This document shows, in pieces, positions 2,044 to 38,730 of a DNA stretch of 64,000 nt. Each line of letters begins with the position of its first letter. The first letter of the stretch is position 1. Where the stretch lies: NCBI RefSeq assembly GCF_048403405.1, contig NZ_CP183129.1. The stretch is one strand, 5' to 3'. The position numbers and the translations under genes are program-made. The stretch comes from Escherichia coli (GTDB lineage Bacteria; Pseudomonadota; Gammaproteobacteria; Enterobacterales; Enterobacteriaceae). Under the pieces are notes generated by a model. It was not told the DNA's origin, searched no databases, and saw only the letters and a list, made by a program, of their open reading frames with translations.

Positions 2044-2761
2044 AATAAATATCCTCCGGCATAGCCGGAGGTTTTTCAAATGCGCCTATAAGGCTCTCTT
2101 ACCAGCCGCGCCCTAACAGGCGCACACGATCTGACATTTGCATCCAACTTCGTTACTTACGGCCCGTAAACGGGCTGCCCGGATAGGGAATCGATAACTG
2201 CTCTCCCATTTTATCCTCTTCAAGCTGGTGCTTTATGTAATCCTGTATCTTCGCCGTGTTCTTACCCACCGTATCGACGTAGTACCCTCTGCACCAGAAC
2301 TCCCTGTTCCTGTATTTGAATTTCAAATCACCAAACTGCTCGTAAAGCATCAGACTGCTTTTCCCTTTCAGATATCCCATAAAGCCGGATACGCTCATTT
2401 TGGGCGGGATCTCCACAAGCATATGGATATGATCTGCACAGCATTCAGCTTCCAGAATCCGTACACTTTTCCACTCACACAGCTTTCTCAAAATACTGCC
2501 TATTGCTCTACGCTTCTCTCTGTAGAACACCTGTCTTCGGTATTTTGGCGCAAAAACTATGTGATATTTACAGTTCCATCGGGTGTGCGCTAAGCTCTTT
2601 TCGTTCCCCATTGGGACCCCCTTTTGATTTCTTGTTTGACACTTGCAGTTGCCAGACCGCAAGGTGTTTTAACAAATCAAAAGGGGTTTTAATAACTGGC
2701 TTAAAGCTGAAAGCTTTCCGGAACCCCCAGCCTAGCTGGGGGTTTTCTGTGCACAAAAAAG
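2044..2761 (-). mobile_element. IS200-family insertion sequence, copy 1 (about 718 bp, no terminal inverted repeats)
   Basis: Segment is identical to 37105..37822; encodes a Y1 HuH transposase; imperfect palindromes near both ends (cctccggcatagccggagg and cccccagcctagctggggg). Confidence 0.9.
2153..2611 (-). CDS. tnpA: IS200/IS605-family Y1 (HuH) transposase TnpA
   Basis: Translation MGNEKSLAHTRWNCKYHIVFAPKYRRQVF...; HuH motif (HIHML) and C-terminal tyrosine; start taken at the internal Met of the 169 aa ORF-track entry to give about 152 aa. Confidence 0.9.
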   Translation of the reverse strand: MGNEKSLAHTRWNCKYHIVFAPKYRRQVFYREKRRAIGSILRKLCEWKSVRILEAECCADHIHMLVEIPPKMSVSGFMGYLKGKSSLMLYEQFGDLKFKYRNREFWCRGYYVDTVGKNTAKIQDYIKHQLEEDKMGEQLSIPYPGSPFTGRK

Positions 2762-2786
2762 GGCTGACAACTGTCAGCCCTTATTT
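2761..2786 (-). terminator. oppF intrinsic terminator (hairpin gggctgacagttgtcagccc then T-run on minus strand)
   Basis: 9 bp perfect stem seen in sequence directly after the oppF stop; the T-run lies at the IS200 boundary. Confidence 0.6.
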
Positions 2787-19737: not shown

Positions 19738-19822
<85 letters not shown>

Positions 19823-19856
19823 TCTCAAGCATTACCTCAAAATTTGAATTACCCTT

Positions 19857-19941
<85 letters not shown>

Positions 19942-20160
19942 TCACTTTCAAAAGTCCCTGAACTCTCAAACGAATCCGTAATTAAATATTCTGCCCAAGC
20001 GGGGAAGGATGAGAAGCTTCGACCAAGGTTCGACTCGAGCGCCAGCGAGAGAGCGTTGCCGCAGGCAACGACCCGAAGGGCGAAGCGCGCAGCGCTGAGT
20101 AATCCTTCCCCCACCACCATCACTTCCTGTAAATACTCAAAACCTGTTACTCCGAGCTAA
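19942..20160 (+). ncRNA. rtT: rtT-like tRNA-operon distal repeat region (contains tpr)
   Basis: Contains a second copy of the tRNA 3'-end-like motif aatccttcccccaccaccatcac (about 20100..20122) and repeated attctgcccaa; extent approximate. Confidence 0.45.
20009..20098 (+). CDS. tpr: protamine-like small basic protein
   Basis: 29-codon [32 protein letters not shown] inside the rtT repeat; arginine-rich. Confidence 0.5.
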
Positions 20161-35960: not shown

Positions 35961-36249
35961 CAGTTATATCTCCTCCGATGACAGAAATCGGGGGAGATAA
36001 TATAAATTCCTGCTTATTGTATTTCTTCATACTACCTGAACAGGTTGTTAATCAGAATTGCGAGCCTGTACCAGAACCTGCACGAAACCACTGCAACAGC
36101 TGTTGAAAAGCCGGAATGTACTCTTTATTGCAAACATTTCAGGGATGAAGTGAAGATGAATTGAGACGTAGTATCCACACCAAGCCGGCGTTATCCGGTG
36201 AGGCGCAATGTTGCGGGGGCTTTATCCCTGGTGGCATTGGTTGCTGGAA

Positions 36250-36317
36250 AGAGAAAACCCCCGCACGTTGAGAGGTAAAACCTGACAACAGAACGGGGGC
36301 TAATCTTGAACCATCAA
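36250..36317 (-). ncRNA. rdl: predicted Rdl antisense RNA, copy A (coordinates approximate)
   Basis: Minus-strand promoter ttgtaa-N17-tattct (-10 at 36325..36330), stem cccccg/cggggg plus T-rich tract about 67 nt downstream; antisense to the ldr leader. Confidence 0.4.
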
Positions 36318-36365
36318 CAATTCAAGAATAGCCGCAAAATGTTGTCATTACAACAAGGCGGCTAT

Positions 36366-36473
36366 ATGACGCTCGCGCAGTTTGCCATGATTTTCTGGCA
36401 CGACCTGGCAGCACCGATCCTGGCGGGAATTATTACCGCAGCGATTGTCAGCTGGTGGCGTAACCGGAAGTAA
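36366..36473 (+). CDS. ldr: Ldr type I toxin (35 aa membrane peptide)
   Basis: MTLAQFAMIFWHDLAAPILAGIITAAIVSWWRNRK; followed by hairpin ggccgcaggtgtaacagcctgcggcc plus TTTTTT (36523..36554). Confidence 0.9.
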   Translation: MTLAQFAMIFWHDLAAPILAGIITAAIVSWWRNRK

Positions 36474-36784
36474 GGTGAAAACGGGCGTCAGGCTGCCGTG
36501 ATGGCAATATGCGCCCGAAACCGGCCGCAGGTGTAACAGCCTGCGGCCTTTTTTGTCTTTATCTCTTCCACAAGTAAATATTGGCAACCCGAGCTGGAAG
36601 CATCATCCAGAGCACTCATGAAACGACTGTAACAGCTGTTGAAAAACCGGAATGCACTCTTCATTGCATACATTTCAGGGATGAAGTGAAGATGAATTGA
36701 GTCGTAGTATCCACACCAAGCCGGCGTTATCCGGTGAGGCGCAATGTTGCGGGGGCTCTATCCCTGGTGGCATTGGTTGCTGGA

Positions 36785-36852
36785 AAGAGAAAACCCCCGC
36801 ACGTTGAGAGGTATAACCTGACAACAGAACGGGGGCTAATCTTGAACCAGAA
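36785..36852 (-). ncRNA. rdl: predicted Rdl antisense RNA, copy B (coordinates approximate)
   Basis: Same promoter and terminator-like elements as copy A, shifted by 535 bp. Confidence 0.4.
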
Positions 36853-36900
36853 CAATTCAAGAATAGCCGCAAAATGTTGTCATTACAACAAGGCGGCTAT

Positions 36901-37008
36901 ATGACGCTCACGCAGTTTGCCATGACTTTCTGGCACGACCTGGCAGCACCGATCCTGGCGGGAATTATTACCGCAGCGATTGTCAGCTGGTGGCGTAACC
37001 GGAAGTAA
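36901..37008 (+). CDS. ldr: Ldr type I toxin (35 aa), second copy
   Basis: MTLTQFAMTFWHDLAAPILAGIITAAIVSWWRNRK (two substitutions relative to copy A); terminator hairpin 37058..37089. Confidence 0.9.
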   Translation: MTLTQFAMTFWHDLAAPILAGIITAAIVSWWRNRK

Positions 37009-37104
37009 GGTGAAAACGGGCGTCAGGCTGCCGTGATGGCAATATGCGCCCGAAACCGGCCGCAGGAGTAACAGCCTGCGGCCTTTTTTGTATCCGGCCC
37101 CATG

Positions 37105-37822
37105 AATAAATATCCTCCGGCATAGCCGGAGGTTTTTCAAATGCGCCTATAAGGCTCTCTTACCAGCCGCGCCCTAACAGGCGCACACGATCTGACATTT
37201 GCATCCAACTTCGTTACTTACGGCCCGTAAACGGGCTGCCCGGATAGGGAATCGATAACTGCTCTCCCATTTTATCCTCTTCAAGCTGGTGCTTTATGTA
37301 ATCCTGTATCTTCGCCGTGTTCTTACCCACCGTATCGACGTAGTACCCTCTGCACCAGAACTCCCTGTTCCTGTATTTGAATTTCAAATCACCAAACTGC
37401 TCGTAAAGCATCAGACTGCTTTTCCCTTTCAGATATCCCATAAAGCCGGATACGCTCATTTTGGGCGGGATCTCCACAAGCATATGGATATGATCTGCAC
37501 AGCATTCAGCTTCCAGAATCCGTACACTTTTCCACTCACACAGCTTTCTCAAAATACTGCCTATTGCTCTACGCTTCTCTCTGTAGAACACCTGTCTTCG
37601 GTATTTTGGCGCAAAAACTATGTGATATTTACAGTTCCATCGGGTGTGCGCTAAGCTCTTTTCGTTCCCCATTGGGACCCCCTTTTGATTTCTTGTTTGA
37701 CACTTGCAGTTGCCAGACCGCAAGGTGTTTTAACAAATCAAAAGGGGTTTTAATAACTGGCTTAAAGCTGAAAGCTTTCCGGAACCCCCAGCCTAGCTGG
37801 GGGTTTTCTGTGCACAAAAAAG
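37105..37822 (-). mobile_element. IS200-family insertion sequence, copy 2
   Basis: Identical to 2044..2761 over the full length; flanks differ (ldr terminator on one side, kdsA terminator on the other). Confidence 0.9.
37214..37672 (-). CDS. tnpA: IS200/IS605-family Y1 (HuH) transposase TnpA
   Basis: Same protein as 2153..2611. Confidence 0.9.
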   Translation of the reverse strand: MGNEKSLAHTRWNCKYHIVFAPKYRRQVFYREKRRAIGSILRKLCEWKSVRILEAECCADHIHMLVEIPPKMSVSGFMGYLKGKSSLMLYEQFGDLKFKYRNREFWCRGYYVDTVGKNTAKIQDYIKHQLEEDKMGEQLSIPYPGSPFTGRK

Positions 37823-37847
37823 CCTTAACGCAGAACGCTAAGGCTTT
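37822..37847 (-). terminator. kdsA intrinsic terminator
   Basis: Minus strand hairpin gccttagcgttctgcgttaaggc then T-run; the T-run lies at the IS200 boundary. Confidence 0.55.

Positions 37848-37866: not shown

Positions 37867-38730
<864 letters not shown>

Follow-up and report, generated by a model that had tools for sequence, protein, structure and literature searches.

Both IS200C copies in the window, which is the whole stretch of 64,000 nucleotides of Escherichia coli DNA analysed here, lie directly behind the intrinsic terminator of a host gene, one behind oppF and the other behind kdsA. Comparison with empty sites shows that the six-T run is native at both loci and that IS200C sits immediately 3' of this run, at its distal end and not at the junction between hairpin and T-run, where a preliminary description of this DNA had placed it, 6 nt away from the true point. 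The explanation that we consider probable is single-strand insertion by the TnpA transposase 3' of a T-rich motif beside a terminator hairpin, with the terminators left intact. A survey of other junctions showed that a hairpin with a T-tract is the near-universal context of IS200-group left ends, and the window pair is an ordinary instance of an already published association between IS200 and terminators.

The two copies in the window are 711 bp each, lie on the minus strand and are 100% identical to each other. The gene of copy 1 is labelled in RefSeq as IS200/IS605-like element IS200C transposase, and its product matched the NCBIfam model NF033573 (transpos_IS200) with 147.7 bits, for a cut-off of 55. 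The element carries a single small Y1 HUH transposase (about 150 aa, with a catalytic tyrosine) and no tnpB, and has subterminal hairpins at both ends without terminal inverted repeats. The left-end regulatory region specific to IS200, with its terminator hairpin and the art200/STnc490 small RNA, is present in both copies, each of which matched Rfam STnc490 (RF01405) with 146.1 bits (at 2621-2744 in copy 1). An AAAA stands 5' of both end hairpins, and the cleavage sites are T-rich. In a similarity search, the IS200 sequence was matched at 18 places in NZ_CP103479.1. The features of the element and of its flanks are as follows.

2044..2754, minus strand: IS200C copy 1, 711 bp, with ends known to within 2 nt; missing from the empty sites.
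37105..37815, minus strand: IS200C copy 2, 711 bp, with the same sequence as copy 1.
2153..2611, minus strand: tnpA, a 152-aa Y1 HUH transposase with HIH and the YY tyrosine motif in its translation.
2724..2742, minus strand: left-end subterminal hairpin of copy 1, CCCCCAGC-TAG-GCTGGGGG, from sequence, fold and Rfam STnc490.
37785-37803, minus strand: left-end hairpin of copy 2.
2743-2746, minus strand: AAAA of copy 1, 5' of the left-end hairpin, in the position of the guide tetranucleotide.
2747-2754, minus strand: element tip GTGCACAG of copy 1, the outermost left-end bases, 5' of AAAA.
2044..2071, minus strand: right end of copy 1, hairpin CCTCCGGC-TAT-GCCGGAGG (2053-2071) and 9-nt tail ATATTTATT (2044-2052).
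37114-37132, minus strand: right-end hairpin of copy 2.
2755..2760, minus strand: TTTTTT of the oppF terminator, native, adjoining the IS left end; present in the empty site of near-identical strains.
2759..2782, minus strand: oppF terminator hairpin, with core GGGCTGACA-GTTG-TCAGCCC at 2761-2780.
2790-2792: oppF stop codon; the hairpin starts 9 nt later.
37816..37821, minus strand: TTTTTT of the kdsA terminator, native; the same six bases are in the ST2747 empty site.
37822..37847, minus strand: kdsA terminator hairpin, from fold and annotation.
37867-37869: kdsA stop codon; the hairpin starts 20 nt later.

Read on the tnpA strand, the left junction of copy 1 is AAGGGCTGACAGTTGTCAGCCC-TTTTTT-GTGCACAGAAAACCCCC (2782 down to 2724) and that of copy 2 is AAAGCCTTAGCGTTCTGCGTTAAGGC-TTTTTT-GTGCACAG (37847 down to 37808), both T-runs being followed by GTGCACAGAAAA and the left-end hairpin CCCCCAGCTAGGCTGGGGG. 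This confirms the earlier reading of hairpin, c and T-run at both left ends; the shared c is the final stem base of two unrelated hairpins and not a common element sequence. Both loci have the anatomy of an intrinsic terminator, with a G+C-rich stem-loop and a T-tract directly after it on the sense strand. Each follows closely on the stop codon of a gene in the same orientation and is also found in the empty sites, where the IS is lacking. Folded as RNA, the oppF hairpin reaches -22.4 kcal/mol (z -5.3 against shuffles) and the kdsA hairpin -19.4 kcal/mol (z -3.5 against shuffles). The oppF hairpin was flagged as terminator-like on both strands by a consensus scan, and by this prediction it is a bidirectional terminator common to oppF and the convergent gene yciU. 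The simple consensus terminator scan passed over the kdsA hairpin, and its call is based on folding.

The insertions are absent at both sites in most E. coli genomes; the oppF site was filled in 7 of 5,426 and the kdsA site in 255. The empty kdsA site of strain ST2747 reads ccccatgAAAAAAgccttaacg, and the filled site in the window reads ccccatg[IS]AAAAAAgcc, that is, ccccatg[711 bp]AAAAAAgccttaacg. The rebuilt empty site of oppF (gcgt+AAAAAAggg, 202 nt) was found with 100% identity in TUM14771 and GN02461. It is the presence of T6 in the empty sites of both loci that identifies the run as native and places the element 3' of it. Reconstruction of empty sites from IS-free strains, which the preliminary description had proposed, found the T-run native at both loci and not at one, and its suggestion of an insertion immediately 3' of a T-run target common to both is correct.

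Filled and empty sequences at kdsA and oppF differ by the element itself, with no target duplication and no base lost, as is characteristic of the family, and therefore the hairpin and the six T remain upstream and the terminators are whole. The junction can slide by up to 2 nt, since both the right end and the target have TT as their last bases. The boundary had been described as uncertain within about 8 nt; the empty sites narrowed this to 2 nt, an ambiguity that stays and that persisted in all sequence comparisons, tandem copies included. The TT was assigned to the flank because the family model sets the recognised target outside the left end (PMC6006769, PMC7290912). The empty oppF site of strain E04, with five A preceded by g (TTTTTC), was considered as a misfit to precise insertion and rejected as a strain polymorphism, near-identical strains having T6.

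The T-run of the oppF/yciU terminator is polymorphic (2755-2761 in the window, 745-751 in L001), being TTTTTC in most E. coli and TTTTTT in the lineage that acquired the IS, and the TTTTTT allele creates at oppF the terminal TT found at every IS200 target. Over 2 kb the oppF region shows 100% identity with that of E. coli strain 4621, as does the kdsA region with that of strain TUM14771. TUM14771 carries the kdsA copy and has an empty oppF site.

Other IS200-group junctions were surveyed in two scans. The first, with one genome per species and a left-end hairpin pattern, returned at least 120 loci from Y. pestis (IS1541), Vibrio, Enterococcus, Ruminococcus, other Bacillota, Mailhella/Desulfovibrio, Oxalobacter, Saccharibacteria and others, a sample in which a few genomes (Y. 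pestis, Vibrio ruber and one Bacillota metagenome-assembled genome) weigh heavily; four loci, L007, L030, L062 and L069, were left out as palindromic host terminators and not IS ends. The second scan covered metagenomes with the exact E. coli-type 42-nt left end and added 67 further distinct flanks. Since the search pattern included the left-end AAAA, its conservation over the survey is by construction. A junction was counted as passing when the fold was -12 kcal/mol or lower and the 3' end of the hairpin lay at most 10 nt from the insertion point.

Among the matches listed, 107 of 115 non-redundant, non-tandem junctions from the first scan passed the hairpin criterion, as did 65 of the 67 metagenome flanks, the failing two having hairpins of -11.0 and -11.8 kcal/mol. 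Pooled non-redundant junctions from many phyla passed in 175 of 182 cases among the matches listed (96%), which strongly supports the earlier idea of terminator-like structures as targets. Control T-run ends at the same loci, including non-coding runs of at least five T as delimited by a crude ORF filter, passed in 6-11% (binomial p ~2e-92 against the highest control rate, among the matches listed); at these rates the window's two of two would arise by chance with a probability of about 1% or less. Nearly every surveyed left end was preceded by a different G+C-rich hairpin with a T-rich tail, and these hairpins are diverse in sequence, stem (mostly 8-14 pairs) and loop size. A few sites, such as L024 and L028, lack a convincing hairpin, indicating that the hairpin is not absolutely required.

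The survey also yielded observations on the left end itself. A 25-nt left-end hairpin pattern (AAAACCCCCAGC, three variable loop bases, GCTGGGGGTT) recurs across phyla in loci L004-L087, being found in Bacillota, Desulfovibrionaceae, Elusimicrobiaceae, Saccharibacteria, Vibrio and Enterobacterales, while the 8-10 nt to the element tip vary; this recurrence points to either a strong constraint on the hairpin or wide horizontal spread. In Dickeya undicola (L072, 687-729) a 43-bp perfect palindrome, GTCTATAG-AAAA-hairpin-TTTT-CTATAGAC, joins an IS200-type left end to its own mirror image, and lies between two convergent host terminators without a transposase gene; it may be the remnant of recombination between two oppositely oriented copies. 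Three loci from Dickeya and Mangrovibacter (L057 at ~900-960, L070 and L086) show the left-end hairpin after a terminator and T-run, followed by sequence unlike the usual IS200 leader, and may be solo or truncated left ends.

The flanks share the consensus TTTNTT (115 sites and 67 more, among the matches listed), the insertions being 3' of a short specific target that abuts the left end. Positions -1 and -2 were T at every site, position -3 was variable (T 63%, A 14%, G 12%, C 10%), and positions -4, -5 and -6 were T in 87%, 96% and 77% of the sites, respectively, all among the matches listed. The right end of the element has the same arrangement, a hairpin followed by ATATTTATT, which finishes in TTTATT and fits TTTNTT. 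Among relatives, the right-end tail varies only inside the motif and the stem has a compensatory T/A change. The distance from the insertion point to the last paired G/C of the target hairpin has a median of 7 nt (IQR 6-8, among the matches listed), and is 9 nt in the right end. At four loci of Y. pestis NCTC5923 (L089, L090, L092 and L106), IS1541 copies are in tandem, with the left end directly after the right end of another copy (GCCGGAGGATATTTATT) and, at L106, one extra T between the copies; since a copy can lie directly behind another's right end, the right end itself is usable as a target.

In the explanation favoured here, IS200C would have been inserted in the ordinary way by TnpA, a single-strand "peel and paste" transposase, the element being joined left end first and immediately 3' of a T-rich motif (TTTNTT), which in both cases is the native T-tract, on the sense strand, of the upstream gene's intrinsic terminator. 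The AAAA 5' of the left-end hairpin would read this motif, by analogy with the guide tetranucleotide of IS608, and the neighbouring hairpin, formed in the single-stranded lagging-strand template, would help make the site usable, whether by loosely mimicking the right end or by leaving the T-tract accessible and free of pairing. We infer active recognition of the hairpin by TnpA, against which stands the heterogeneity of the target hairpins, unlike the specific recognition of left- and right-end hairpins described for IS608. All the surveyed sites are survivors in genomes, and selection contributes to them to some degree. The association of about 96% makes hairpin sensing versus selection directly testable.

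The target of ISDra2 is TTGAT and that of IS608 is TTAC, and to our knowledge neither element needs a neighbouring hairpin, whereas IS200 sites nearly always have one. In other respects IS200C resembles both, with a Y1 HUH TnpA, subterminal hairpins and insertion 3' of a short target beside the left end (PMC6006769, PMC7290912), as well as the absence of duplication and a preference for the lagging strand (PMC6006769, PMC3971601, PMC7290912); the guide tetranucleotide that the two models have 5' of the hairpin foot would have its candidate counterpart in the AAAA of IS200C. The guide tetranucleotide and the target flanking the left end belong to the mechanism described for the family (PMC6006769, PMC7290912). 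A wider proposal, which we put forward tentatively and regard as somewhat doubtful, is that IS200-group TnpA has a composite target, namely any stable single-stranded hairpin with TTNTT 5-9 nt later, loosely copying the right end, which would make intrinsic terminators near-obligate landing sites in many phyla. If this were true, part of the known orientation bias of IS200 would stem from the orientation of terminators. Such capture of a target by structure plus sequence is not known to be part of the IS608/ISDra2 model.

The plus strand of the window has a GC skew of -0.033, and therefore the minus strand, with both copies, is the G-rich strand. Of 118 surveyed junctions flanked by 3 kb or more, 98 (83%, among the matches listed) had the IS top strand as the G-rich strand, against 63% of unoccupied terminator-like sites at the same loci (Fisher p 6e-4). 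The test is a rough one, given the noise in local skew and control sites that are themselves neighbours of occupied ones. This strand bias beyond that of unoccupied sites suggests a replication effect added to gene orientation. By GC skew the insertions are on the lagging-strand template, the skew being an indirect measure, as the origin and terminus lie outside the window; a lagging-strand bias of IS200 is known (PMC3971601).

Targeting by sequence only, in which a short T-rich motif suffices and selection removes the insertions in genes and promoters, leaving the survivors seen today, appears unlikely. The T-rich motif is indeed what the family model requires (PMC6006769), sites without a clear hairpin exist and the data all come from standing genomes. 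However, a hairpin was found at 6-11% of non-coding T-run ends versus 96% of occupied sites, and selection would need to purge nearly all other intergenic insertions, while rare insertions, such as that at oppF in 7 of 5,426 genomes, share the pattern with the 67 flanks of the exact 42-mer. Purifying selection is expected to be weak in Y. pestis, yet 31 of 32 IS1541 junctions of strain NCTC5923 passed the hairpin criterion among the matches listed. The accessible part of a 2025/26 preprint gives upstream terminators at 40% of IS200 copies versus 0.6-4% in the other families shown there (bioRxiv 10.1101/2025.07.22.666184). Selection alone is therefore a poor explanation of the hairpin association.

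Insertion coupled to transcription would take place where RNA polymerase pauses or releases at a terminator with the non-template T-tract exposed, and not on replication-fork single strands. The target strand is always the sense (non-template) strand, and the median of 7 nt past the stem is close to where transcripts usually end at intrinsic terminators. Moreover, 140 of 177 sites followed an ORF of 80 aa or more in the same orientation, the insertion being a median of 55 nt past the stop codon (among the matches listed), a test that is weakly discriminating, as stop-to-stop ORFs give 39-51% in the controls. Against this coupling, the bias towards the G-rich strand (83% of occupied versus 63% of unoccupied sites) points to replication, and the DNA of the upstream hairpin would be re-annealed in a transcription bubble; we consider it quite improbable.

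Similarly low odds attach to an effect of silencing, in which the upstream terminator limits the transposase and copies behind terminators persist better. This is how the preprint reads the pattern, as a context limiting transposase expression (bioRxiv 10.1101/2025.07.22.666184), and the expression of IS200 is known to be held very low (PMC4513863, PMC5435999). However, the IS200 left-end hairpin is a published bidirectional terminator (PMC4513863, PMC5435999), reported to stop ~85% of incoming transcripts (PMC5435999), to which a host terminator adds little, and both the invariant TT and the exact junction with the last T reflect insertion chemistry and not persistence. The possibility, raised in the preliminary description, that the element provides the U-run to two unrelated terminators is refuted, as is the related one that it carries the hairpin along; in their favour there is the shared cTTTTTTGTGCACAG string and nothing beyond, whereas hairpin and T6 are already in the empty sites of both loci and the hairpins differ at all 182 sites (among the matches listed).

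The tendency of IS200 relatives to lie behind terminators has precedents. Odaert et al. in 1998 reportedly described that IS1541 of Y. pestis had inserted downstream of genes and that 8 of 14 sites had terminator-like stem-loops, which were proposed as hot spots; the exact position at the distal T-tract end, the TTTNTT consensus and the likeness to the right end are said to be absent from that work. IS1541 is the Y. pestis ortholog of IS200, and the window element is the E. coli variant IS200C. Another published case is an IS1541 copy between pheL and pheA in Yersinia. In its accessible part, the preprint reports that sequences resembling terminators are enriched immediately upstream of ISs, most strongly for IS200/IS605, and that 40.2% of 20,314 IS200 copies have such a sequence outside the element; resolution of the insertion point and empty sites were not found in that part (bioRxiv 10.1101/2025.07.22.666184). 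The exact insertion point, the TTTNTT consensus, the right-end resemblance and the near-universality were not found in the literature examined.

Outside the family, the nearest parallels in mechanism are group IIC introns and REP-targeting ISs. Group IIC introns insert after terminator stem-loops, but are retroelements that use RNA-DNA pairing and stem-loop recognition, with protein and chemistry unrelated to those of IS200. REP-targeting ISs and REP-associated tyrosine transposases, the latter being relatives of IS200 TnpA, have extragenic hairpins as substrates or targets; however, REPs are one repeated sequence family, whereas the hairpins targeted by IS200 are unrelated, with only their structure and T-tail in common.

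An altered termination of oppF or kdsA, which had been suggested earlier, is unlikely to judge from the anatomy, since the hairpin and six T are intact and the left-end terminator hairpin of the element follows 12 nt later. The change is confined to the bases after the T-tract, where GTG replaces ACG or CAT, and the expression of oppF and kdsA should be unaffected. For the convergent gene yciU the shared terminator is now 711 bp farther away. Read on the plus strand, the right-end hairpin resembles a terminator (hairpin and TTTTT) and could be a replacement terminator for yciU. This hairpin (2053-2071 and 37114-37132) is in fact terminator-like on both strands, being followed by ATATTTATT on the tnpA strand and by TTTTTCAAAT on the opposite one, and with its left-end terminator and right-end hairpin IS200C looks insulated at both ends from outside transcription.

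These results imply that IS200 lands at harmless sites just past gene ends, where the host terminator and its own left-end terminator shield it from read-through. Landing past gene ends accounts for the tens of copies that IS200 can attain in a genome with genes almost never disrupted. For annotation, the T-run is to be taken as host sequence, which fixes the boundary of the element, and the hairpin beside an IS200 left end as a host terminator outside the element.

Two other regions of the window deserve mention. The kdsA copy adjoins tandem repeats of ~535 bp (36014-37091, 87-99% identical) with Ldr-family toxin genes, in which matches to the rdlD antitoxin RNA were found on the minus strand at 36252-36317 and 36788-36853. 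The final repeat ends in its own hairpin and TTTTTT (37058-37089), a potential IS200 target that is ~20 nt from the occupied site and has itself stayed free. The plus strand at 19738-20119 has two tRNA genes and, after them, an RtT RNA element (Rfam RF00391, 137 bits).
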